This document shows positions 1 through 38,894 of a stretch of DNA of 64,000 nucleotides, piece after piece. A program made the translations under genes and the position numbers. This DNA comes from Naegleria gruberi. Lineage: Eukaryota. Every line of letters starts with the position of its first letter. Position 1 is the first letter of the stretch. Under the pieces are notes generated by a model. The model was not told the origin of the DNA, did not search any database, and saw nothing but the letters and a program-made list of their open reading frames with translations. Location: the NCBI GenBank assembly GCA_000004985.1, contig GG738882.1. The stretch is one strand, 5' to 3'.

Positions 1-2162
1 TTTATAAATGGTAAAATTCTATAATACATATGGATTGGATTAAATACTGAACTATTTAATAATTCAACATTTCTTTCAGTTTCAAATTTTAATATATATA
101 GTAAATCTCTTAATTTGGAATTTACAGAATAGGAATTTTCACCATTTCCAATTCTTTTACCTAAATTTATAATTGGTCTTGCACTTGTTTGTTTTGGTAA
201 TAATCGAACACTTGCATAGGGTAAAATTTTATTTTTTAAAATTTCATTCAATTCAAATTTTTCTAATTTTTTAAAAATATTAATTTCATTTGAAATTTGA
301 TTTTTTTCATTTGTAGTATTATGTAAATTATTTAATAAATTATTTTTTTGTTTTAAATGAAATTGACTTATTTTTAAATAATTACTATTTATATTATATT
401 CATTACTAATTATAGAAGCATTATCATAAAATTTATAAAAGGAAACTCTATTTATATATTCCCATGTTTCTCTTCTTAAATATAATAAACGTGTTCTTTG
501 ATGATCACTTTCTGTTATATAAAAATGTGTTGATAATAAAATCATTATTAAATGTTTAAAAATAAATAAAATTAAATTTTGAATCATTTTAGTTTGTTTT
601 TTAAATTTTAAAATATCTATTTTTTTAAAATTATTATTATTATTATTACTATTTATATTATTATTACTATTTATATTCTTTGTATTATTTATATTATTAT
701 TATTAAAAAAATTAAAATCATTAATTTTAATTTCTAACATTAATTCATGTAAAGTAATACTTTCAAATCTTCCAAGTTTAACAATTTTATCAATATTTCC
801 AAATATAACATTCATATTATGTTCACTTCCAAATAAAGATTTTGGAATTAATTTTTTTAAAATTGATTTTAAAAATTTAGAAATTGCAAATGAAGAATGT
901 GTCATTTGAATTAAATTTTCAAATTGTTCACTTGAATTTAAAAATATTTCACTTTCTATAATTGGAGTTATGCATTCATCTGATAGTGAGGAAGAATTTG
1001 AATCTTCATCTTCTTGTTGTGTGCAAAGTAAATCTTCAAATTTGTTTGTTAAATTTTTACCTTCATTTATAATTTTTTTTAATTTTTTATAAATTATTGG
1101 TTGTTCTTGATCATTTATGGAAATTTTATCATTAATTAATTTCCTTTTTTGGATTGGTTTGAGTGGACAATATAAACTTAATATATATGGTAATGATTTT
1201 AATTTCTTTTGATTATTTTTAAATTCTAATAAAATTTCTAATAAATTTCCAAATCCTTTTAAATTTTGTTTTTTTGGTAATTCTTTAGAATTATAAAAAA
1301 TAAAATTAAATAATTTTTTAGCTCCATTTATATCATTACTTGTTATATTTAATATATCTAAATTATTTTTAAAAAAATTAAAGTATTAAATAAATTAATT
1401 TATAATTTATAACAACTTACGTTTTTGTGGAAAACCCAAAATTGGATTTTTCTTATTTGAATATAAAATCATTTGTCTAGGTAAATAAATATTTGTACAT
1501 TTTCTATCAAGTTGATTATTTTTTTCAACAACTTTTTCCAAATCAATCCATTCATTATTTAAATTTTCATCATCTTTCATTTCATCATTTTCATCCAAAT
1601 TAGTATTAGAATTATTTTTACTATTTTCTAATAATTCCAATTCAATAGTATCTATATTAATGCTATCAATATTTTCATTTTTTTCTAATATTAAATTATT
1701 AAATAAATTGTAATCAGTTTTCATTAATTTTTTAATTGAATCTGTTTGAATTAAATTTGTACAAAATTTACAAATTGGAATTCCAGTAATTTGTAAAAAA
1801 CAATTTCTAGGTAATAATTTAATGACAATACAATGTTGTAAAATATATTTCATCATACAATCACCAATAATAAATAATAAATTTTCCCAATCTTTTCCTT
1901 TTACAATATCAATTACTGAATTTGGATAATAAGATTGAATTGTTGTCATGTGTGAAATTCCATCAGATGCATTTGGTCTAATTTTACTAAATCCACTACA
2001 TAATACATGATTAGGCTTATTTTCAATTCTAAAATTTGATTCTATTATTAAATCTACAATTTCACTTAATTTTGTTTGTTGTTTAAAAATTATTGAATTT
2101 TGTAATTTTAAATTATTTAAAGTATTATTTAAATTATTATTTGAAATATTTTCATCATTCAT
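1..2162 (-). CDS. TERT: Telomerase reverse transcriptase, 5' part (TEN/GQ domain, Asn-rich linker, TRBD T-motif, RT motif 1). The rest of the gene lies beyond the window start. One 53-nt intron at 1368-1420 (GTAAGT..TTTAG).
   Basis: ORF 1407-2162 matches the hTERT TEN domain: NHVLCSGF..SYYPNSV..LLFIIGDCMMKYILQHC vs NVLAFGFALL..SYLPNTV..LLRRVGDDVLVHLLARC. My downstream minus-strand translation gives HFYITESDHQRTRLLYLRREKKW (T motif FFYVTE..FYRKSVW) and VRLLPKQTSARPIINL (motif 1, LRFIPKPDGLRPIVNM). Start ATG at 2162; an in-frame stop lies upstream at 2375. Confidence 0.8.
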
Positions 2163-2407
2163 TGATAGAGATTTTATAAAATTTTCGTGATAATCAATAA
2201 AAACATTTTCTAAATTTGGAGCATTTGGTGGAATGACAATAAAATACTTGCTAAAATTTGAAATATCTCTTGTGGATAGATATTTTAATTTTTGTTTTAA
2301 AAAACAACTATAATCATCATATTTAACAAATAATTCTTCAATAAATTCTATTAAATTCTTCCACTGATTTGGAAATATTAAATTAAATATTGAATTATAT
2401 TCTTGAA

Positions 2408-2863
2408 NNNNNNNNNNNNNNNNNNNNNNNNNNNNNNNNNNNNNNNNNNNNNNNNNNNNNNNNNNNNNNNNNNNNNNNNNNNNNNNNNNNNNNNNNNNNN
2501 NNNNNNNNNNNNNNNNNNNNNNNNNNNNNNNNNNNNNNNNNNNNNNNNNNNNNNNNNNNNNNNNNNNNNNNNNNNNNNNNNNNNNNNNNNNNNNNNNNNN
2601 NNNNNNNNNNNNNNNNNNNNNNNNNNNNNNNNNNNNNNNNNNNNNNNNNNNNNNNNNNNNNNNNNNNNNNNNNNNNNNNNNNNNNNNNNNNNNNNNNNNN
2701 NNNNNNNNNNNNNNNNNNNNNNNNNNNNNNNNNNNNNNNNNNNNNNNNNNNNNNNNNNNNNNNNNNNNNNNNNNNNNNNNNNNNNNNNNNNNNNNNNNNN
2801 NNNNNNNNNNNNNNNNNNNNNNNNNNNNNNNNNNNNNNNNNNNNNNNNNNNNNNNNNNNNNNN
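2408..2863. other. Assembly gap (run of 456 N)
   Basis: Literal N characters in the sequence. The X-filled ORFs in the track across this interval are artefacts. Confidence 0.99.
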
Positions 2864-2914
2864 TTTTTCAAAATTCAAATCCGGAATATGTTATTCAATT
2901 TATATATCAAGAAT

Positions 2915-4274
2915 TGGATAAGATGAATTTAAATCATACTATAATGGCAATAGAAGAGGAAACTAATATTAAGAGTATGTTGTTTAATGTTAATAGTTTT
3001 ATATTGATAATATGAAATATTAATAAATAGGAAAAGAAGAAAATCAAGTTGTAACATCATCTGTATTTAGTAAGGAATTAAACAATGTTCTTGATGGTAT
3101 TTCGGAATATATTAAAAATCCACCAATTCCAATTCAGCATGTTGATAATTCAGATACAAAAGTTAAATCAATTTCTCAATTATTAGAAGAATTTATGAAG
3201 AGTAGTGATGAATTGTTTTTACGATGTTTTGTTTCCTGTTTTACCTTGTTCATTTCACATGATGAATTGATTGAGGAAATTTCAACAAATCTAGACAAGT
3301 GTTTTTATTTGGGTATGAAAATAAGTTATTGGATTGGAAGTTATGAAGATTTGCTGTTCGATCATAATATTAAGGATCAATTTGAAAAATTGTTATATTG
3401 TTTGGAGAAGACTGGGAAATTAGATCTTGAATCGTGTGAAACAATACGAATGATGCTTAATGGTTTGATAACAGTTGGAGGAACTAGTAAGATTCTATTC
3501 TATGCTCCAGACACTTTTGACATTCTGAGTAATAATATTGATTTTTATGATATTCCAAATGTTGAAATTGCCAGACAAATTACATTACAAGATCAAGCAA
3601 TGTTATTATCTTTGAAACCCCATGAACTCTACCTTATTGATTCATGTTGGGAAGCCACAACGGTAATTAATCGATATTCAAAATTATCTCAATGGATATG
3701 TGATATGGTTGGAGATGAAACTCATATTTATGCAAAAGAATTAGAAAAGATAATTAGTATTGCGGAGGTTTGTATTGAAACTGTTTTTAATTATTGACGC
3801 GCAAAGAATTTAAAATTATTCAATAATTATTGGAGTTTATACGCAGTTCTTGAAGGAATTACAAACGCATTGGAATCTGTAAAGGATACTAGAACTGTTC
3901 CAGATTTTCTTTTGAAAAGATTAAATACTTTGAAAAAGACAAGATTTAAAATGGTAAAGGCAAGATTTTTAGATAGTCCAATAATTCCATTCTAGTATGT
4001 ATTTTGAGTTCAATATGTTCTAACATTATACAGCACACCATACTTTAAATGTTTAAAAGAAATTGTACCACAAAATGACATATCTTCCTACTTATTCCAA
4101 TCAGAAGATGAAGTAAAGATGATCAAATGGGACAAAATTGAGAAGGTATTCGAAGTTATTTATGAATTACAAAGATATCAAAGACAAGTGAAAAAGACAC
4201 CATATCCTTTTCGTTCACATTTCAGAATTCAAAATATATTAGATAGTTCCATAGATGAAAAAAACAAAATTTAA
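2915..4274 (+). CDS. Ras guanine-nucleotide exchange factor (REM N-terminal domain + CDC25-homology domain), multi-exon
   Basis: ATG at 2915. A GTATGT..AAATAG intron (2966-3030) joins in frame to the 3195-3797 ORF. N-terminal REM-like segment LEEFMKSSDELFLRCFVSCFTLFISHDELIEEI. CDC25 domain start DIPNVEIARQITLQDQAMLLSLKPHELYL..W. Further exons continue to the stop at 4272-4274; I did not resolve all of those splice sites. Confidence 0.65.
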
Positions 4275-5392
4275 AAAAGTTTTTCATTAGCTAAAAGTTG
4301 TTTTTGAACTCTAACAATACTATTTTGCGTAATGAGAGGTATCTTATCTCTTGAAAGCATTTCCTTAACAGGTATTTGAATAGAACTTTCATAAACATCA
4401 AGAATAGTTTCTGGATAAATTGGAAGGAATTGATATTGTAAAGCCATGATTGCATTTCTAGTTCTACAAATAGCTTCTCTTTCCTTAATAGAAATTTGAT
4501 CTATTGTTTCACCTGATGCAATAAAACTATTTGATTCAAAAGGATTACCTGGTTTTGTTGATAATTTTGAAATTGGTCTCGTAACTTCTTCTTCATCACC
4601 TTCAGCTGCAGCTAATAAATCATCTAAATTTGTTGATGATTTTTTAGAATCTGAAGATGTATCCATACCATCTCCATCTGATTTCCCAGAAGATGAAATC
4701 CATAAATAACCATTTTTACCTAAAATAACTCTAACACCAAATGGGAATATATGAAAATGTTGTGTACATCTTTTAACTAGAGATGGATGTACTCTAATCA
4801 TTATACCATTAACTAATTTACCATATCTAGAACTTCTAGTTTGTAATTGTAATGATGATCCATCAGTTCTATGTACTTCAGCTGTAATTAAATCATCTTC
4901 TTGATAAATACTTCTCATATTTAATTGATCTTCATAGGTTTTTCTTCTTTGACCACCTGGAATATTTACAGAATTTAAATCTAACATTGCATCTTGTCTT
5001 GCTTGAACATCAACTTTCCACTTTTTACCTGCTAACTTTGAAATTCTACCAACAATTACATCACCAACTTCAGCATGATATCTAGCACGAACAGGTCTAA
5101 CTGATATTAATTTGTTTACTTGTTCAACTACACCACAAACACTACTAATTAATTGATTCTTTTCATTTCTATATGTTCCATGTCCACACAATACATTACT
5201 ACCATTTTCTACAATCATTTCTCCTGGAGTGACAATATGAATTTCTTTTAATTGTCCCGATGATTGTCCATCTTTTTGAAAAGCAAATCTAATAATTCCA
5301 TCTTCTTCTTCATCATCATCTACCATATTATTATTTTCATCAGATTGATATTCATCACTATATTCATCCTCATCTTCTCTATGTGGTGGCAT
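4271..5392 (-). CDS. RRP4: Exosome complex component Rrp4 (S1 + KH RNA-binding domains)
   Basis: Single 373-aa ORF with acidic N-terminus and an S1 domain (GDVIVGRI..KWKVDV, RRKTYEDQLNMRSIYQEDDLITAEV). Eukaryotic Rrp4-type overall layout. Its stop overlaps the RasGEF stop in a convergent arrangement. Confidence 0.8.
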   Translation of the reverse strand: MPPHREDEDEYSDEYQSDENNNMVDDDEEEDGIIRFAFQKDGQSSGQLKEIHIVTPGEMIVENGSNVLCGHGTYRNEKNQLISSVCGVVEQVNKLISVRPVRARYHAEVGDVIVGRISKLAGKKWKVDVQARQDAMLDLNSVNIPGGQRRKTYEDQLNMRSIYQEDDLITAEVHRTDGSSLQLQTRSSRYGKLVNGIMIRVHPSLVKRCTQHFHIFPFGVRVILGKNGYLWISSSGKSDGDGMDTSSDSKKSSTNLDDLLAAAEGDEEEVTRPISKLSTKPGNPFESNSFIASGETIDQISIKEREAICRTRNAIMALQYQFLPIYPETILDVYESSIQIPVKEMLSRDKIPLITQNSIVRVQKQLLANEKLF

Positions 5393-5844: not shown

Positions 5845-8800
5845 AAGTTAGATTCTAGGAAAGATGGGAAATGCGATCCATCACAATTTAAAAAAGTTTT
5901 ATCAAGATTTGGTGTTACAAGTGGAATTAATAATGTTGTTAAACGATTTAGTAATGAAGGCTTGGTAAATTATAATGATTTTCTTGGATATTTTGAGGAA
6001 TCAAGAACAATAAGAAAGCAGGCGACAATCAAACAAAATGATATAACACCATCTCCTCAACAAACTTCTCCACGACCAATAGAAAAACCAAGCCCTAGCC
6101 AAAAGCCTCAAGTTAAAAAGGTTGAAAACATTGAATCAAAACTATATACTCTTCGTACCAATATTGAAAAGGATTTAAAAAACATTGATAAGAATAATAG
6201 TGGTTCGGTACCTGTTGAAAATTTCAAGAATGTTCTTGGAAAGTGTTTCGAGAATCAAGATGTTATTAAATCCATTGTAGGAAGCGTTTCAAATGGTAAA
6301 ACAGGTATGTATAACAGATCAGAAGAATTTAACAATTTCCTTAGTGAATTATGAGCTGTTTCTCTCTTTAATTTCATCTCCACCTTCATCAGAAATTGTT
6401 TCTTCTACAATAGAGCAAGGTAGCAAGTCTGATAAGAGAGTGTTTAATAATGGATCCAAAATGATGGAACATTTCAAATCTTCGGATCCTTTAAGGTCAG
6501 GTCTTGTTGACGAGACTTACTTTAACAATGTAATTTCCAAATATGTTGATCCATTTAAAGCAGAGAAGTTTCAAGAAAAAGTAGCTCATCATTCTTTTGA
6601 TGGAAAAGTGGACTATAATGCTTTTATGACCAATTTTGCAGAATTAAGCACTGATGAGGAGGAATTAAGAGGTATCAAGTGTTTCCCTAGACCTCCTTCA
6701 TGTATTTTAGATAGCAATATCACATATCCAAACTTGAAAGGATTGGCAACATTCCCGAGAAAAGATTCATTAGGTACTTTATTAAGTACAGACTTACCAA
6801 GTCCTTCAACACAATCAATCAATGATATAACTAAACCATCTCCAACTTACTATTCACGGATTTTTGCACCTCCAGATCCATTTAGAGAATTCGAGCAAAA
6901 AGATATTGTTTTACAATTTTCAGAATATGATGGTTCAGAAGAGGGACCAAAAAAAAGAGGTGTAAGTTTTTATTTTGAAATGTTTTTTATAACATATTTA
7001 GAAAAAAATAAGTCAACCTTTGGAAAGAGATGAAAAGTCTCCTAGAAAGAGACAAATTAGTGGATCAGAAAAGGAATCTGACGATAATCCTTTAAGTATA
7101 TCTTCTGTTCAAACAACATATGAAAAAATAATGGAAACTAAGAAGAAGAACAATGATATGAGGGAAGGATTGAGGAAAGTGAAGGAAGTGTTCAAAAAGA
7201 ATAAGAATATTTCATCATCCCTTACAGAAACTCTTGATGGTATGTAAAATGTTAAAAATGTTGTTTCATTACAATTGTAAAAAGGAATGGGTCAATTAAA
7301 ACCTTCTGATTTGGATAAGTTTTTATCAAAGAATGGAGTAACTTTATCAGAGGATCAATTAACCTTTGTGGTGCAGAAATGTGATAGAAACGGTGATGGA
7401 ATGTTGGACTATTTTGATATTGCCAATAATTTACTTCACGATACATCTCATGTTAATGCTTTTGATAGTCATCTTTCATTGAATGGATCTGTGAAAGATG
7501 GAAGTTTTGAACAATCCCCAGCATCTCCGAGAAAAATACTTAACAAAGCTCAAATACAATCCCCAGACTTTAAGATTGATTCTTCGAAACCAAATCCAAT
7601 GAAAACACTTGAACATATTCAACACGCTATTGCAGATATCGATGAAAATCTTAAAACTCCTGTAAAATTAAAAGAGAGAACTGAAATGGAAACACCAATT
7701 CAAACACCAATCAATCTAACTGATATATTCGACTCACTCAAAGATGTAATTGTACAATCCCCAGTTATTGAAACACCAAAATCTAAAACTGTAGAAACAC
7801 CAAAAACTCAATCAACAATCAAGAAGAAAGAAATCCTATCCACATCAAAGGAAGTAAGAGAGGTGAAGGAAGTTGACAGAGCTCTCGTTAAGAAAATTTC
7901 TGAAAAAATCAAAATTTCAAAAACAATGCAACAAGCTTTCCAATATTTTGATAAGGACAGAGATGGAAATATTACACCTGAGGAATTTTCAAATGGGTTA
8001 TCAAACATGGGATTCACTGTAACAAAATCAGAAGCATCACAAATTATGGGACTTGTTTCATCTGATCCAAAACTATCATATGCCAATTTCTCCAAACTAG
8101 TTGAAGATTCTTACTGGGATAAATTTCCTGAAAGCAAACAAAGAAGTCCTAAATCAACACCAAAGAAAGTAATTAATAGATCTGATGAAATTGTAAACAA
8201 GAAAATAAGATCAGAATTGATGGACTATAGTTCACTTAGACCTGCTCAAATTAGAGAATCAATGAGAACATTTGATAAGGAGAGAAATTCTTGGTTACCT
8301 CCTGATAAGTTTAAAAAAGCTCTCAAGGTAATTAATCCAAATTTATCAGAATGGATGATTGATAGAGCAGTTAGACAAAGTTTGATAGACACTGGGAAGT
8401 GTGATTACAACAAATTCTTTGATAATGTTGGATTTGATTTACCTAGCGACGAGATTGAATTTAGAAATATTCCAAATGTAAGAAATTACAAAAGAGATAC
8501 AATTTTGGATTTGAGTGATGTTCGTGATCCTTTGTTGTGTTTGGAGATTAATAATTTTGGAAGAATAACTAATAATAGTGTAACAATAGGATCTGGAGAA
8601 ATTATTTCACACAATACACCAGTTAAAGGAGATTATCCTCTTGAGAAACATCTCGGTAGAAAGAGTGCAGGTAAACCACTACCTGATACATTCAATGTTT
8701 CAGATATGGAACCACAACAAAATGAACCTCAATCACCAAGAAGACTGTCCATTTCTCAAGAACCATCCACTCCTCAACCATCAAGTCCAAGAACTGGACG

Positions 8801-9672
8801 ATATTCCAGTACTCCACCTCAAAGAAATCCACTTTTTGGTGATGATAATAACACTAGTCAAAAGCCAATTGGAATTAAGGTTGGTTTTGTACCAACTGGA
8901 ACAATTGTGAGCACTTCACAATTAAGAACTAACTATGATAAGAAGGAAAATTTGAATAAGGGTTTAGCCTCATTTGTTTCTGAAAGATTGGAAAGTCCAA
9001 AGAAGGTTATAAGGTCACAAACACCACAAACAGATGTTAAGAGATCATCCAAGAAATTGTACAGTGATATCAAACAGTAAGTGATTATATTTAACATTTT
9101 GAACTAATATTATCAAAAGACAAACTGAAATTAATATTGAAAGAGGAGAAATTGATACCACAACAGCTAGCCCTAGAAGAAGAAACCAAAGCATACCTCC
9201 TCAAGATACAAAGCAAGCAATTTTAAGCAAAGTAGAAGAACATCATAAAACTGCTCGAGATGCATTCAGAAAGATTAGTAGCAGTGGTAAAAACATTGCC
9301 TCTGTTACTATTAATGAAATGCAAAAAGCATTGAAGGACATGAATTTACACATACCAAGCGATGAACTGAAGAAGACTTTTGAAGTTAAAGATAACACTG
9401 AAAAGATTAACTTTGAAAAGTTTGCTTCTGTAATCAAACCTTCACAGATCGAACCAACACCTCAAGAGCCAAGATATGCTTCTCCACCAATGTCTCCTAG
9501 ATCTCAATTAGCTGTACAAAATAGAAACCAACAATCCTCACTGAAAGAATTATTGAACTGGGATTCCAAGAAAGCAGTTACAAATGTTTCCACATCTCCT
9601 TCAAGATCTCAATCAGTTCCTACCAAAAAGGATGTTTTTAGAGGAAGTGGAAATATTATCACTTGGATGTAA
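5818..9672 (+). CDS. Large multi-EF-hand calcium-binding protein with Ser/Pro-rich linkers, about 6 exons
   Basis: Introns verified in frame by hand: 6305-6392 (GTATGT..CAG), one near 6960-7000, one near 7232-7284, and 9079-9122 (GTAAGT..AAAG). Canonical EF-hand loops are present: DKDRDGNITPEEF, DRNGDGMLDYFD, SRKDGKCDPSQF. The 9319-9672 ORF continues in the same frame after the last intron. Confidence 0.6.
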
Positions 9673-9698
9673 TGATAGATAATAAATTATTTATTAGA

Positions 9699-11117
9699 TT
9701 AAATAGTTTGCTTCTTATAACCCTTGAAATGAATCTTGATACGTTTGTAAATATGTTTAACAGCAAAGAATCCACAAGCCAAAGCAATTGTGCCTAAAAC
9801 AAAGACATAGAGCAAAATTTCAATAATTTGCTTTTGGTCTTGAACTGATCTTTCAAAATAGCTTCCCCAATAAATAGTGTATTGGTTATTCAAAACACTT
9901 GCACCCTTTGTCATGTCTCTCACAGAAGATAATCCTAATCTATCCTTTACAGTCATCAATCTAATACCAGATTCAGTTGCCTCAATAATGAATTCATTGC
10001 CATTACCTGAAGCTTCCTTACCAGCATAAACCATTACGTTTGTAACAATGGTGTTTGATTTAAGGAAAATGAGATCACCAACATGGAATCCATTAATAGA
10101 AATTTCAGTGTCAGCTGCATTGAAAATATCTGTCATTGTTCTAGGTATTCTCTTACAATAGGAAACTAAATAAAGTAATTGAACTATACCAGCAGCATCA
10201 AATCCTGTAGATTCCATATAGTCAACATTCATAGATGTTCTACCACCCTTCAAGTATTTTCCTCCAATCATGCTAGAACCAAATTGAGAAATAGCATGCA
10301 AAGTCCAATCAGAAGCATCAGCCAATGGTCTAAGTGTAACAGAGATAAGTGAACGAATTGATTCTTCAAAAGTTTTAGTTTCACTTTCATTGATATATGC
10401 AGATTCTTGAAGAGAATCATATGATTGAGAAGATGACAATGAACCATTTCCTCTAATAATAAAAACAGCTACCCAACCATCATTAGAACTTTCAGAACTT
10501 TGTCTTTTTAAAATTGTACCAAATGAAACTTCGGAAATGATATCAGATTTTGTACAACCTCCATTAGTTTGGTCATTACATTTCTTTTTAAATAATTGAG
10601 AGGATTTAGATTTTACAATAATTAATTTAGAAGCACCATCTGCAACAGTGATAAGTGTAGAATAATCACTCATAGTTGGACAAATTTCTAATAAATTACT
10701 TGATGATGTTATCTTTGTCTTGTCAGTATTTAAAATATAAATATCGGATCTTTTCAAATAGCCCACTGTACCCATTTGAGTAGTATTTGAATAGGTTAAT
10801 TGCATTGGTAAACTAACTTTCATCCATTCTTGTCCATCTGTACCACTAATGGTATTTAAATCATCTCCAATAATAAATAAACATTCTTGATAGTGTATTT
10901 GAGAAATTCTATCAAATGTTGAACCTGCTCCTGAATATACAAAAGCATTTGGACTTGTAGCTATAGCTGCTCCAACAACATTTGAAGGCACCATTGAATT
11001 GGCTCCATATACACTAGTAGTATAGATGATTATCATGATAAACACAAAAAACGACAAAAATTTGGAGGATCCAACAATTTTCCTGCAGGGTTGTTTTGAA
11101 TGTATGGTTGTGCGCAT
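9699..11117 (-). CDS. Type-I membrane protein with signal peptide, extracellular NlpC/P60-like domain (catalytic Cys replaced by Ala) and C-terminal TM anchor
   Basis: N-terminal hydrophobic segment FLSFFVFIMIIIYTTSVYG; C-terminal TM ILLYVFVLGTIALACGFFAV. NlpC/P60 core GFDAAGIVQLLY..IPR..HVGDLIFL..VMVYAG, where the canonical DCSG is DAAG here. True ATG at 11117. Confidence 0.6.
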   Translation of the reverse strand: MRTTIHSKQPCRKIVGSSKFLSFFVFIMIIIYTTSVYGANSMVPSNVVGAAIATSPNAFVYSGAGSTFDRISQIHYQECLFIIGDDLNTISGTDGQEWMKVSLPMQLTYSNTTQMGTVGYLKRSDIYILNTDKTKITSSSNLLEICPTMSDYSTLITVADGASKLIIVKSKSSQLFKKKCNDQTNGGCTKSDIISEVSFGTILKRQSSESSNDGWVAVFIIRGNGSLSSSQSYDSLQESAYINESETKTFEESIRSLISVTLRPLADASDWTLHAISQFGSSMIGGKYLKGGRTSMNVDYMESTGFDAAGIVQLLYLVSYCKRIPRTMTDIFNAADTEISINGFHVGDLIFLKSNTIVTNVMVYAGKEASGNGNEFIIEATESGIRLMTVKDRLGLSSVRDMTKGASVLNNQYTIYWGSYFERSVQDQKQIIEILLYVFVLGTIALACGFFAVKHIYKRIKIHFKGYKKQTI

Positions 11118-11381
11118 TTTTTTTGTTCTCTTGGCGGAATATTATGATCTTTGTGATTTATGCGAAAAATTGCCAGGCTTTGGTTCAACACAACACAACC
11201 AAACAATTCATTTGAAGGTTTCTAATTATCATATTGTATGGCACTACCACATTCTAATGAGGCTTTGATAGTCCGTTCGAATGTACTGCAACTAAATGTC
11301 CAATGCAGACTTAAATTTCATCAAGATTAAAATATTCATCATCATCACATACTTGAAATTATCATTAGGTATTCACCTAGC

Positions 11382-33523: not shown

Positions 33524-35655
33524 TTAAAAGTTTTCCTTGTGGAAAACAAATTGAACAGTTGAGTTCTTGCTCTTATCAACAGCGTACGAGTACACCTGCT
33601 TTGAAAGACCTCCTGGCCCACAAACAAAGACACCCACATTTGGTTTCTTAGCTCCTGAACTATTCTTTTCAACATATCTTCTAATATCTGAGAATTCAGC
33701 ATCCCAATTAGGTCTACCAAAGTTTCTCTTTGAAGAGTCAGCCATCTTTGTCACATGGTCAACCTTGACAACAAAATTGCCAGGGAAGAGACCTGTTTGT
33801 TTGGTTGTAGTGTTGGTACCAGTCCACCAACCAGATTCATCTTGTTCAGATACAACAACGATATCATTTCTATCCAAACTAATTTCATCTGAGCTTTGAG
33901 CATCATATTTGTGCAAAGCACGAACCATAAAATCAACCTTACCAGATTGTTGAACATTACCAGCAGTGTTTGATTGAGTTTGATATTCAGAGGAAGTAAA
34001 CATAATCTTTTTAACATCATCTGCCTTAAGCATACCTGTCATGTATGTGTGAATATCAAAGAATTCTGGATTTTCAGTTTCAAGTTGATTCAAAATATCA
34101 GAGAACCATTCCCAACTTCCTTCATCACGATTAATCCAGTAGAAACTAGCACGACGAATCTTGAGAGGAGGAGCTTGCCCAGAAGCAGCAGCATCCAATC
34201 TAAATTTGAAATGTTTTAAAAGTGAACTGTATGGAGTAACACCAATACCAGCAGCAATCAACATGACATATTCAAAATCGAAACAATATTCAGCACAAGT
34301 ACCAAATGGACCATCAACACGAATTAAATAATCAGTTCCATCAGGAGTAGTTGGTTTGTTAATTTCAACTGTTGGTCTTTGAGCTGGATTGAAAACATCC
34401 ATCAAAGTATTGGTCCAATCACCAACACATCTAATGTGGAATTGTAAGAATTCTTCCTCAGGAGCAGAAGAAATAGTGAAAGGATGCCATTCGTGTTGAG
34501 AAATCATTGGACAATTCAAGAAACAATATTGACCTGATTCATATCTGAAACTTGGCTTTTCCAATTCCAAGTGAATAACACGTGATGCCAAACAGTGAAC
34601 ACGTTTAACAATGGTCATTTCAGAACCACGCAAATTTCTCATAACTCTTTCAAGAGCATACAATGCCTATGTAAGATCAGTTTCGTATAAAATCAAATTA
34701 TTAGAAACTTACCATTGGAATAAAGAACCAAGCCCAAAATTGCTTTCCATGAACCAACAACAATACGAAAAATACCACAAACAAGTGATGAGCATACCAA
34801 AAGACTGTAAAATTCTTTGTACGACGATAGGACTTGGCAGAGGCAGCATACATGACTAATTAAAATATATTAAACTAAACATTAAATAATATTACTAAAC
34901 ACATACTAAACATGACAATGCAGAGAACATTTCCTGTAGTTCCGTATTTGTTCCACCAACAAGCTTCCAAAGGAGTTCTAGCACTATTATATAATTGCCA
35001 ACAACAAGCATAATTGAGATAGTGTCCTAATGTGTGACCAATTACACATACTACAATCCTATATATTATTATTATGTTATTATATTATTATTATCATTAA
35101 ATATTGATACATTTCATCGTTTTTTTTGTGTATCATCATCATGAGATTCGAATAAAATTTCAACCATCACATCATTAAAAACTAAACTAAACTAAACAAT
35201 AAAACATACCAATAGGCCAAATAACGATGAAAAACCAAATTCTTATCTAATGGGAAAATCGAACCAAATTTCAAACTTCTAAAAACATTCAACAATGTTC
35301 TCATAGTTGGTAAAATCAATAGGGCACAATTAAAATTCAACAATTGGCCGAAACCTCTCGCCAAAGCCACATAGAAAGGAACCACCGTAACACCAGTAAT
35401 ATTAACCAACAGAAGAGCATAATAATATCTGACGAAAGCTTCTGTGAAAAGGAATAGATTCAAAATGACCCAAATTAAAACAACCACTAGTTTTTGACCC
35501 TCTGCTGACCAATAATTCATAAATTCATGTCGATTGGTGAAACGTTTCTTCCACTTGAGAAGGAATTTACGAACGGACGAAATAGATTCGGATGAGAAAC
35601 CATTGGCGAAACAGCCGTAAAAGAAGAAATCACAACAATTGCTAAGAGCACCCAT
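33524..35655 (-). CDS. NOX: NADPH oxidase (NOX/ferric-reductase superfamily), 4 exons, with an SH3 domain inserted in the NADPH-binding lobe
   Basis: Exon 1 (35655-about 35214) has TM helices incl. LNFNCALLILPTMRTLLN. Exon 2 carries the heme-ligand segment GHTLGHYLNY. Exon 3 carries FWYAHHLFVVFFVLLLVHG. Exon 4 (33524-34663) carries the FAD motif HPFTISSAP, the NADPH motifs GIGVTPYSSLL and CGPGGLSKQ, and C-terminal FVFHKENF (NOX2 FIFNKENF). Splice frames checked by hand. Confidence 0.8.
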
Positions 35656-36032
35656 CTTTTGTTTGTTTGGGTGTTGTGGAAATTTGTTGTTTGGTTTTTT
35701 TTTGTGATGATTTGATGAGTGACATTTAATAGCCTTGTCTTTCTACTTGATAAATCAGGTGAAATTTTTCCTTGACATTGAAAGAGAGGTGAGACAATCG
35801 TTTCCCTTTCTTCCTTTTAGACATGGATCATTTATGTTTGTATACTTTGTAACATTGGTTTGATTATCCAACCTTATTGTAATGTTAACTTGTAAACTAT
35901 TCGAAATGAATAGATATTTTGTTGACTCTTCTTATTTGTTCAAGTTTCTTTTAAAGACAAAAAAGTAGTTCGGTTTCTGATACTTCAAAACTGTACATAT
36001 CCAATTTTTAACAATCGAAACTAAACGAAACT

Positions 36033-37202
36033 TTATTGATGTAATTTACATCCAGGACACCTCTTTGGTCTATCCATTCCATGATAAATATCAGGTCGAG
36101 GTGCACCTGCAATCTTTAAAAACCCAACAGCTCCCTTCTCTATTCGAAAGATAGCATGATCCACAAATGAATAAGTTCCTGGCACAATTGCCTCAAACTC
36201 AATCATTGTTGCACCACCTGGTGGAACTTGTGTCACTTGTACATTTCTCTCTGGAGGACTCACTAAATCTCCCTCTCTGAAAACCTTATCAAAAATTGCA
36301 CCAATGACATGAAATGAGGAGGAAAGATTTGGACCTGCATTTCCAAAGTAGAATCGAATACGTTCTCCAGTGTTGGCAAGGAGAGGAGTATCAATGAGAG
36401 AACCTTCTCTTCCATTAAAGACGACATAGGTTGGTTTCTCATCTAATCCATTGGCATACGAATGTTCCATTAATTTTGGATCATCATCTGATGGTTCACA
36501 ATAGAATTCACTTTGCATGACATAGAATTCCTTATCTACTTTTGGCAATCCCTCTTCTGGTTCAACTAACATTAATCCATACATGCCATTACTTATGTGT
36601 GAAGGTACTGGACCTGCAGCACAGTGATAGATAAATAAACCTGAAGTTAATAATTTGAAAAATCCTGTTTTTTCTTCATCTTTTTCTGCCAATAACATTT
36701 CTGCACCTCCTCCTGGTCCTGTCACACAGTGAAAATCAATATTGTGAGCCATACCGGTTTCGTCCAAGTTTAGGTAATTGACTTGCATGACATCTCCAAC
36801 TCTTGCTCTGATAAATGGTCCAGGAACTGTTCCATTAAATGTCCAATATGGATACTTGTACTGTTTGCTGATTGGCTTCACTTCAATTGTGGTATCTAGA
36901 TTAACAACTAATTGAACTGGATAATCACGGTCAATTGGTGGAGGAATTCCAGGAGCTTTTGTTAAAATTGCTTCAACAACTGGCAACTCCAAATTTAATT
37001 CAGGAGCTTTCTTGAATTTCTTCATCATATTTTCAGGAAACAAACTATGTTTCTTTGGTGTTTCTTGTGCTTCAAGTAAACTATCACATTGGTATTTGTA
37101 GTATTGATAAACACCTGTGCCAACAGCACAGGTTAGACCTAGGGATAACACAATGTCAAAAGTCTTTGGTTTGACAGTTCTTAGTCTGTGGAACAGTTTC
37201 AT
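36033..37202 (-). CDS. nirK: Copper-containing nitrite reductase (NirK) with N-terminal presequence/TM anchor
   Basis: All T1/T2 copper ligands are present in the canonical spacing: HNIDFH (His95/His100), YHCAAGPVPSHISNGM (His135-Cys136..His145..Met150), SFHVIG (His255), VDHAIF (His306). N-terminus MKLFHRLRTVKPK + hydrophobic FDIVLSLGLTCAVGTGVY. ATG at 37202, TAA stop. Confidence 0.8.
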   Translation of the reverse strand: MKLFHRLRTVKPKTFDIVLSLGLTCAVGTGVYQYYKYQCDSLLEAQETPKKHSLFPENMMKKFKKAPELNLELPVVEAILTKAPGIPPPIDRDYPVQLVVNLDTTIEVKPISKQYKYPYWTFNGTVPGPFIRARVGDVMQVNYLNLDETGMAHNIDFHCVTGPGGGAEMLLAEKDEEKTGFFKLLTSGLFIYHCAAGPVPSHISNGMYGLMLVEPEEGLPKVDKEFYVMQSEFYCEPSDDDPKLMEHSYANGLDEKPTYVVFNGREGSLIDTPLLANTGERIRFYFGNAGPNLSSSFHVIGAIFDKVFREGDLVSPPERNVQVTQVPPGGATMIEFEAIVPGTYSFVDHAIFRIEKGAVGFLKIAGAPRPDIYHGMDRPKRCPGCKLHQ

Positions 37203-37779: not shown

Positions 37780-37852
37780 TGCCGACACCAGGGATCGAAC
37801 CAGGGACCTTAAGATCTTCAGTCTTACGCTCTCCCAACTGAGCTATGTCGGC
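37780..37852 (-). tRNA. tRNA-Phe (anticodon GAA)
   Basis: Reverse complement is GCCGACATAGCTCAGTTGGGAGAGCGTAAGACTGAAGATCTTAAGGTCCCTGGTTCGATCCCTGGTGTCGGCA, near-identical to the eukaryotic consensus tRNA-Phe. T-stem has one U-U mismatch (51-63). Downstream T-run on the minus strand. Confidence 0.8.
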
Positions 37853-38003: not shown

Positions 38004-38894
38004 ATGTTAACTTCCATTCAAGCCACATTCAAATCCCTTCCTAACAAATCTATCCGAGTAAGCAAAAACTGCTCTGTTTTGCCAAACTTTACCCAACATA
38101 AATTGTATAATTACTCTACAAGTAGCTTTGATCCTTTTGAAGGAAAAACCGAAGGATTAAACAAGATTGATTTTATTGATGTGTTGCCATCACAAGTTAC
38201 ATCATCTAATAGAACACTTCTTCCTCAAGATATGATAGCAGTGAATGAACAAAATGTTGGTGACTCATATTATAAACAAAATATTAGACAAAATGCCTTG
38301 TTGTGGAGAAAAAACATCAAGAAATTGAGAAGGGTTGACCTCGGACCAATCGGATCGGCCACCTTTGAGAATTATGACATTAATTGGTATGTAAATTAGC
38401 AAATTAATATTCTAATAATTTTTAAATTGATATATTTAAATAGGATTCAATGTCATGAAATGGTTCTAGTTGAAAAGGGATTAAATAGTCAATTTGTGGA
38501 CGAAGGTAAAGCTTATGATCCACTCATTCCAAAAGGAAAGGATATTACTATTACATTTATGTTTGAAATTGAAAATGAAGTTATTAGAAGAGCCACCCTT
38601 AAAAAGTTTGGTGATATTGAAAATAATTTCAAAATTCAAGTTTGTAAAAAGGCAACTGGTGAAATAATTTATACAAATTCTTGTGTTCCAACTGAAGAGG
38701 GAAGAACTACAAATTCTGGAATGACATCTGCTGTTCACTTTTTTACAGTTCCTTTCTCACAAGAGCAAATTGACTTTTTGAGAAATAATACAGATTCTAT
38801 TCGGATGAAGTTAACTGTTGATGATGAAAGATATCCTCATACTACTGTACTCAGTCCAGCACTTGTAACGGAATTGCTTAAAGAATTTGATTAA
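38004..38894 (+). CDS. Hypothetical protein, 2 exons (intron 38387-38442, GTATGT..AAATAG), possible organellar targeting N-terminus
   Basis: Hand-checked in-frame join ..DINW|IQCHEMVLVEKG... No motif recognised. Confidence 0.5.

Follow-up and report, generated by a model that had tools for sequence, protein, structure and literature searches.

An SH3-containing NADPH oxidase gene and a copper nitrite reductase gene in Naegleria gruberi are probably chance neighbours

A 64,000-nucleotide stretch of Naegleria gruberi contig GG738882.1 (the whole stretch analysed, here called the window) carries a gene for a copper nitrite reductase (NirK) that is followed on the same strand by a gene for an NADPH oxidase (NOX). 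Both proteins have described counterparts. The Neisseria gonorrhoeae NirK, AniA (structure 1kbv), and the NirK core of Ralstonia pickettii (3ziy) are similar to the Naegleria NirK over about 300 residues (E 5e-94 to 8e-92), with the same type-1 and type-2 copper ligands and the same catalytic Asp and His. AniA is a bacterial outer-membrane lipoprotein, and the R. pickettii enzyme has a fused cytochrome c. The Naegleria NirK has neither layout and, unlike AniA, possesses a 71-residue eukaryote-type N-terminal extension and a C-terminal CxxC-x2-H tail. The NirKs of fungi (Fusarium oxysporum and others) and of Acanthamoeba castellanii belong to a lineage shared with Naegleria NirK in trees, and they have the same arrangement of a basic presequence, a single hydrophobic segment and a CxxCKLH tail. 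In Naegleria, however, the presequence is far shorter than in fungi, with 15 rather than 40-70 residues before the hydrophobic segment.

For the oxidase the described counterpart is NOX2 (gp91phox), which has a six-transmembrane ferric-reductase domain with four haem histidines and FAD and NADPH domains, as does the Naegleria protein. Compared with animal NOX2, the Naegleria NOX bears an insert of about 100 residues with an SH3 domain in its NADPH-binding domain. This SH3 insertion, the same as in other SH3-containing heterolobosean NOXs, was already described by Zhang et al. (2013; PMC3591440) in both N. gruberi NOX genes. With respect to gene order, the available comparison is with bacterial denitrification clusters, in which nirK occurs with nor, nirV or nnrS as neighbours. 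The N. gruberi locus has the catalytic enzyme in common with these clusters, but the neighbours of NirK are NOX, a tRNA-Phe gene and DUF3501, F-box, RasGAP and SNF2 genes, and other Naegleria species do not share this neighbourhood.

The contig containing both genes is 381,539 bp of nuclear DNA from N. gruberi NEG-M. The NirK of the window is 100% identical over 100% of its length to XP_002674759.1 (EFC42015.1, D2VM78, NAEGRDRAFT_50708), which is named "predicted protein [Naegleria gruberi]" and, in UniRef, "Copper-containing nitrite reductase". The spliced NOX of 627 amino acids is identical to "NADPH oxidase [Naegleria gruberi]" (XP_002674758.1, EFC42014.1, D2VM77). Both genes are therefore part of the public annotation, and eukaryotic NirKs, that of Naegleria included, and the SH3-bearing Naegleria NOX have been published. 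In the list of open reading frames (ORFs), the NirK coding sequence is a single exon of 389 amino acids plus stop at 36033..37202 on the minus strand. From the NirK stop to the NOX ATG there is a spacer of 377 nt (35656..36032, minus strand, from the gene coordinates). The first-pass annotation had placed NirK upstream of NOX on the same strand and 377 nt away, and the coordinates of the two minus-strand genes agree with this. The spacer contains no ORF of at least 50 amino acids and has no Rfam match; it presumably holds the 3' untranslated region of NirK together with the promoter and 5' untranslated region of NOX, and the two genes would be transcribed independently. We conclude, with a probability of about 0.85, that NirK and NOX are two independent, previously annotated nuclear genes that chance has placed side by side in a genome of very high gene density.

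Our synteny comparison covered N. fowleri, the NirK locus of N. lovaniensis, and the environmental contigs L004, L005, L090 and L091, with the gruberi sub-lineage represented by NEG-M alone. The two N. fowleri genes are on separate contigs, NirK (FDP41_000576) on VFQX01000002.1 (1.24 Mb) and NOX (FDP41_004540) on VFQX01000037.1 (605 kb). No NOX gene was found within 10 kb on either side of the N. lovaniensis NirK or on the 4.4-kb environmental NirK contig, L004, and no NirK gene was found on the three environmental contigs that carry a heterolobosean NOX (L005, 59% identity; L090/L091, about 80%). Upstream of NOX, these three contigs have an F-box gene and a GTP_EFTU-family gene as neighbours. 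When the full 64-kb window was compared with the related loci by tblastx, matches occurred at NirK only or at NOX only, with no other syntenic gene. Microsynteny between N. gruberi and the examined relatives is essentially nil at these loci.

The upstream regions of NirK and NOX have no common motif beyond chance 12-nt matches. None of the genes around the pair (F-box, RasGAP-C2, SGF29, DUF3501, COPI-associated, alpha/beta hydrolase and SNF2) is linked to nitrogen or oxygen chemistry. There are 49 ORFs of at least 130 amino acids in the 64 kb, so that a 377-nt spacer is unremarkable here. We favor a chance neighbourhood because the pairing is missing in all of the relatives checked, the upstream regions lack a common motif, and the neighbouring genes are unrelated. 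The first-pass annotation had itself allowed that the pairing may be coincidental and had proposed examining its conservation in related genomes; it is conserved in none of those examined, being absent from N. fowleri, N. lovaniensis and the three environmental NOX contigs. The useful outcome is a negative one, namely that the neighbouring NirK and NOX genes are not to be taken for a gene cluster, and the finding itself adds little.

The two-cupredoxin catalytic core of NirK comprises residues 72-373 (36084..36989, minus strand), as defined by the AniA alignment, Pfam and the mapping of ligands. AniA is the best solved-structure match (1kbv, E 4.9e-94) and aligns over exactly these residues. 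Identity between the core and solved structures is about 50%, and at least 60 solved NirK chains align full-length with the Naegleria protein. Pfam identifies two cupredoxin domains, Cu-oxidase_3 (1.1e-08) and Cu-oxidase_2 (5.2e-07). In the alignment the type-1 copper ligands His153, Cys194, His202 and Met207 correspond to AniA H94, C135, H143 and M148, the type-2 copper ligands His158, His193 and His349 to H99, H134 and H289, and the catalytic residues Asp156 and His298 to D97 and H240. The complete copper ligand set that had been reported for this gene is thus confirmed, with all seven ligands and both catalytic residues mapping onto AniA. The protein is closer to the class II enzymes (AniA, 4.9e-94; R. 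pickettii 3ziy, 7.6e-92) than to those of class I (1nia, 2.7e-38; 1hau, 5.8e-36).

The best explanation of these sequence features is that NirK is a class II (AniA-like) copper nitrite reductase that looks functional and belongs to the eukaryote-type lineage. Such an enzyme would accept electrons from a small soluble donor at the type-1 copper and reduce nitrite to nitric oxide (NO) at the type-2 copper, which would be located between the subunits of a trimer. Eukaryotic NirK is well suited to questions about the anaerobic and NO metabolism of mitochondria.

The C-terminus of NirK has the motif Cys382-x-x-Cys385-x-x-His388 (36039..36059, minus strand), recognized in the alignment of homologues and ending one residue before the stop. 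The same C-x-x-C-x-x-H pattern is present in 118 of the 121 aligned NirK homologues, 0-2 residues ahead of the stop codon. It takes the form C-x-x-C-K-L-H-x in eukaryote-type NirKs and C-x-G-C-L-V-H-P in a related bacterial cluster and in the NirKs of Planctomycetota and Omnitrophota. Among 39 named prokaryotic species representatives, the tail was found only in the NirKs of Planctomycetota and Omnitrophota; AniA lacks it, as do 35 further named bacterial NirKs, those of alphaproteobacteria among them. None of the solved NirK structures aligns over the tail, and our literature search found no description of a C-terminal cysteine tail in NirK. The motif may be a lineage marker. A role as a metal-binding or maturation element is speculation. 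The tail ties eukaryotic NirK to the enzymes of Planctomycetota and Omnitrophota and not to those of the alphaproteobacteria, an observation that could feed further work on NirK.

Our phylogenetic trees of NirK are rough neighbour-joining trees from Kimura-corrected p-distances, one of them built from the 120 best matches and AniA. The NirKs of N. gruberi and N. lovaniensis, the N. fowleri-type NirK and three environmental NirKs formed a heterolobosean clade in 183 of 200 bootstrap replicates. Naegleria NirK was placed among fungal, algal and other eukaryotic NirKs, in agreement with published trees: Woehle et al. (2018) grouped the eukaryotic NirKs, whose origin is an established topic, and Pold (2024) placed the N. 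fowleri NirK with fungal clade 1g. The deep nodes were weak. A split between the bacterial cluster plus AniA and the remaining NirKs was recovered in 91 of 200 replicates, and a clade of all tail-bearing NirKs in just 44 of 300. Among the species representatives of GTDB, the closest prokaryotic NirKs are from Planctomycetota (53-55% identity) and Omnitrophota (50%). The alphaproteobacterial matches from Pelagibacterium and Devosia, at 50-52%, are no closer and have no tail.

A protomitochondrial origin of eukaryotic NirK was proposed by Kim et al. (2009), as cited in PMC4686598. By this proposal the eukaryotic NirKs, the present gene included, would be vertical relics of the alphaproteobacterial protomitochondrion. 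The eukaryote-type NirKs (Naegleria, fungi, green algae, nematodes and others) do tend to cluster, forming one group in 172 of 300 replicates of a tree made from the core only; they are grouped in the published trees as well, and the predicted location of the enzyme is mitochondrial. The distribution among eukaryotes is patchy, however, and the most similar prokaryotic NirKs, which are also the sole prokaryotic ones to share the tail, are those of Planctomycetota and Omnitrophota and not the tail-less alphaproteobacterial enzymes. The weak deep nodes, including that of the tail-bearing clade, also count against the proposal, and we regard it as doubtful for this gene. We claim no origin for eukaryotic NirK, whether as a mitochondrial relic or by later transfer, because the deep nodes of the neighbour-joining trees are weak. 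The phylogenetic interest of a eukaryotic NirK, noted in the first-pass annotation, is real, but it has already been the subject of the three publications named above (Kim et al. 2009; Woehle et al. 2018; Pold 2024).

NirK genes were also observed in four nematodes, Aphelenchoides avenae, Ditylenchus destructor, D. dipsaci and Panagrolaimus davidi. Their products are 57-64% identical to Naegleria NirK, have an N-terminus with a basic stretch and a transmembrane segment, and end in a CxxCK[LV]H tail. The four proteins form one clade in 165 of 200 replicates of the neighbour-joining tree. The D. destructor gene (JAKKPZ010000097.1; positions 8001-11146 of locus L088) and the A. avenae gene (JNEY01000175.1; 8001-10324 of L089) are on contigs of 214-233 kb with eukaryotic neighbours (p450, BTB and Elf1). 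These genes contain introns, since they span 2-2.5 times the length of their coding sequences. No paper on an animal or nematode NirK was found in our literature search. Bona fide, intron-bearing NirK genes in several nematodes could feed work on eukaryotic NirK.

The N-terminal targeting or anchor region of Naegleria NirK, delimited by charge and hydropathy, consists of residues 1-35 (37098..37202, minus strand). Residues 1-15 include five Lys or Arg and no Asp or Glu. Next come a single segment of moderate hydrophobicity (approximately residues 17-35) and a charged linker, which completes the extension of 71 residues that precedes the core. A basic stretch and one hydrophobic segment are likewise found at the N-termini of the N. 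lovaniensis, N. fowleri, nematode and fungal NirKs. In N. fowleri about 33 mostly basic, Ser-rich residues precede the hydrophobic segment, and the first 64 residues are free of acidic residues. In the NirKs of the related bacterial cluster, the median signal peptide is 31 amino acids long.

In bipartite presequences, such as those of cytochromes c1 and b2, a matrix-targeting signal is combined with a stop-transfer segment, which leaves the protein anchored in the inner membrane with its domain in the intermembrane space. The NirK N-terminus, which has this layout, would most likely act in the same way, directing import into mitochondria and then, as a stop-transfer anchor, tethering the enzyme to the inner membrane. 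The catalytic domain would then be in the intermembrane space, where cytochrome c would feed it electrons. This location fits both the periplasmic ancestry of NirK and cytochrome c as the donor. Among the related enzymes, the A. castellanii NirK has been detected in the mitochondrial proteome (PMC13632651); in Fusarium, the reduction of nitrite is linked to the mitochondrial chain, and the activity of fungal NirK resides in mitochondria (PMC4686598).

The first-pass annotation had described a mitochondrial-type N-terminal anchor. The basic stretch and the hydrophobic segment of such an anchor are present, but the amphipathic signal is weak, with a maximum hydrophobic moment of 0.39 against a mean of 0.52 for shuffled sequences. 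Because of this weak moment in the N. gruberi protein itself, we rate mitochondrial targeting of NirK as likely only.

The weak moment is one of several points that weigh against our interpretation of the two genes. The mitochondrial assignment of NirK draws on its homologues, and NirK is not among the entries in the listed part of the N. gruberi mitochondrial proteome table, although we give this little weight. N. gruberi has been reported to be a strict aerobe (PMC6856725), which bears on the physiological use of its NirK. Our literature search found no experiment on the N. gruberi NirK or on the NOX XP_002674758.1. Finally, the adjacency of the two genes could be conserved among very close relatives of N. 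gruberi.

The N-terminus of NirK might alternatively be a type II signal anchor that directs the enzyme to the secretory or phagosomal pathway instead of to the mitochondria. Three observations would suit a signal anchor: only one hydrophobic segment lies near the N-terminus, the N. gruberi presequence has a low hydrophobic moment, and the environmental homologue P0004 opens with a signal-peptide-like segment. However, 15 acid-free residues with five Lys or Arg ahead of the segment are long for an n-region, and the presequences of the N. fowleri and fungal NirKs, with 40-70 basic, Ser/Arg-rich and acid-poor residues before the segment, are longer still. The mitochondrial assignments of the Acanthamoeba enzyme (PMC13632651) and of the fungal activity (PMC4686598) argue in the same direction, and a cytochrome c-type donor would be expected in the intermembrane space and not in the lumen of a phagosome. 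We therefore consider a signal anchor unlikely and retain mitochondrial targeting as the likely reading.

The NOX gene extends from an ATG at 35655 to a stop at 33524 and has three GT-AG introns of 151, 51 and 46 nt, which were identified by eye and with a script. In our splice model, exon 1 (35210..35655, minus strand) encodes the N-terminus and the first transmembrane segment (TM1) through the start of TM3, with the first TM3 haem His. Exon 2 (34907..35058, minus strand) encodes the rest of TM3 with the second haem His, a loop and TM4; the histidines align with NOX2 His101 and His115. Exon 3 (34713..34855, minus strand) contains TM5 with its haem histidines and continues to the start of TM6, and its sequence YAHHLFVVFFVLLLVHG aligns with the TM5 histidines of NOX2. 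Exon 4 (33524..34666, minus strand) encodes the FAD- and NADPH-binding dehydrogenase domain, assigned from Pfam and motifs, and the stop.

The best solved-structure match of the NOX protein is human NOX2 (8gz3_B, E 6.6e-75), which aligns end to end. The four haem histidines line up with those in TM3 and TM5 of NOX2, and Pfam identifies Ferric_reduct (3.3e-12), FAD_binding_8 (2.9e-20) and NAD_binding_6 (2e-43). The translation contains the motifs HPFT, GIGVTP (GxGxxP) and CGP. A Pfam scan of the protein found no EF-hand, in keeping with an NADPH oxidase of the NOX1-4 type. The SH3 domain (SH3_9, 1.4e-14; SH3_1, 1.9e-14) lies within the NADPH-binding domain at about residues 495-547 (33767..33925, minus strand, from Pfam), and the NOX2 alignment is broken between NOX residues 459 and 559, the site of the SH3-bearing insert. 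The protein is a NOX2-type flavocytochrome that would take electrons from NADPH in the cytosol and pass them via FAD and two haems to oxygen across the plasma membrane or an endomembrane, and its SH3 domain presumably recruits a proline-rich regulator.

We also observed the combination of SH3 and NOX domains in N. fowleri, Willaertia magna, Acrasis kona, Andalucia godoyi and many environmental homologues. The SH3-inserted NOX is thus not confined to N. gruberi, and its distribution suggests an architecture found throughout the Discoba.

The first-pass annotation had suggested that the pairing of NirK with NOX could reflect co-regulated metabolism of reactive nitrogen and oxygen species. Such a module would make NO and superoxide together, for instance for use as peroxynitrite against prey bacteria or for signalling. 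The two genes share a strand and are separated by only 377 nt, both products would make small reactive species, and NO crosses membranes, so that a shared compartment would not be needed. Nevertheless, the suggestion found no support. The adjacency is missing in N. fowleri, in N. lovaniensis and on the three environmental heterolobosean contigs; the upstream regions share no motif; and the predicted compartments differ, with NirK in the mitochondrial intermembrane space and NOX in the plasma or phagosomal membrane. Every gene in so dense a genome is closely flanked by others, and to our knowledge polycistronic expression is not known in Naegleria. We consider a co-regulated module very unlikely. 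It is equally improbable that a tandem NirK-NOX pair is functional in the N. gruberi lineage alone and co-induced by prey, nitrite or low oxygen. Were that so, the locus would represent a eukaryotic "reactive N/O" gene pair peculiar to this lineage, producing NO and superoxide with an antimicrobial or signalling role.

The composition of NirK is that of its host. Its GC content is 0.381 and its GC content at third codon positions (GC3) is 0.252, values that fall within those of 28 ORFs of the window (GC3 0.224 +/- 0.045). The window is AT-rich, with a GC content of about 30-36% over most of its length. Orthologues that are 71-72% identical are present on Mb-scale contigs in N. fowleri and N. 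lovaniensis. Bacterial contamination of the assembly, or a very recent transfer from bacteria, might be suspected for an intronless gene of a mostly bacterial family whose best solved homologues are bacterial, but it is effectively refuted by the orthologues in two other Naegleria genomes and is further opposed by the host-like GC and GC3, the setting in a eukaryotic contig of 381 kb with spliced genes and a eukaryotic tRNA-Phe gene on its flanks, the eukaryote-type N-terminal extension, and the heterolobosean clade in the tree, so that we have rejected it. The first-pass annotation had reached the same view from the eukaryotic, spliced flanks, and the NirK tree, with its heterolobosean and eukaryote-type grouping, bears it out.

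Upstream of NirK, the tRNA-Phe(GAA) gene (37780-37852, minus strand) was the sole match in an Rfam scan of the region. It lies between NirK and a divergent gene at 38004-38894 on the plus strand that encodes a DUF3501 protein (PF12007), a family that is mostly bacterial. In the DUF3501 gene, a short GT-AG intron at about 38388-38443 connects two ORFs. The N-terminus of its product is Ser/Lys-rich and free of acidic residues for about 40 residues, resembling a mitochondrial presequence.

The left end of the window (1-3000) is extremely AT-rich, with 14-20% GC, falling to 6% at 2501-3000, and contains several AT-rich tandem repeats. Inside this end is an ORF at 1407-2162 (minus strand) with a match to the TEN domain of TERT. 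The ORF for the exosome subunit RRP4 (4271-5392, minus strand) has a GC3 of 0.08, compared with about 0.22 elsewhere.

Directly downstream of NirK, the related loci of N. fowleri and N. lovaniensis carry a gene for a conserved protein of about 940-1018 amino acids with no Pfam domain. This gene is at 11402-14458 in L001, 11462-14475 in L007 and 11336-14349 in L002, with 68% nucleotide identity over 2.7 kb, and has no counterpart in the N. gruberi window. The environmental contig L004 has a match to an IS66-family transposase domain (DDE_Tnp_IS66) at 3014-3322 on the minus strand, next to the gene for the Naegleria-like NirK P0004 (69% identity). In the P0004 protein the initial signal-peptide-like segment is followed by a second hydrophobic segment.

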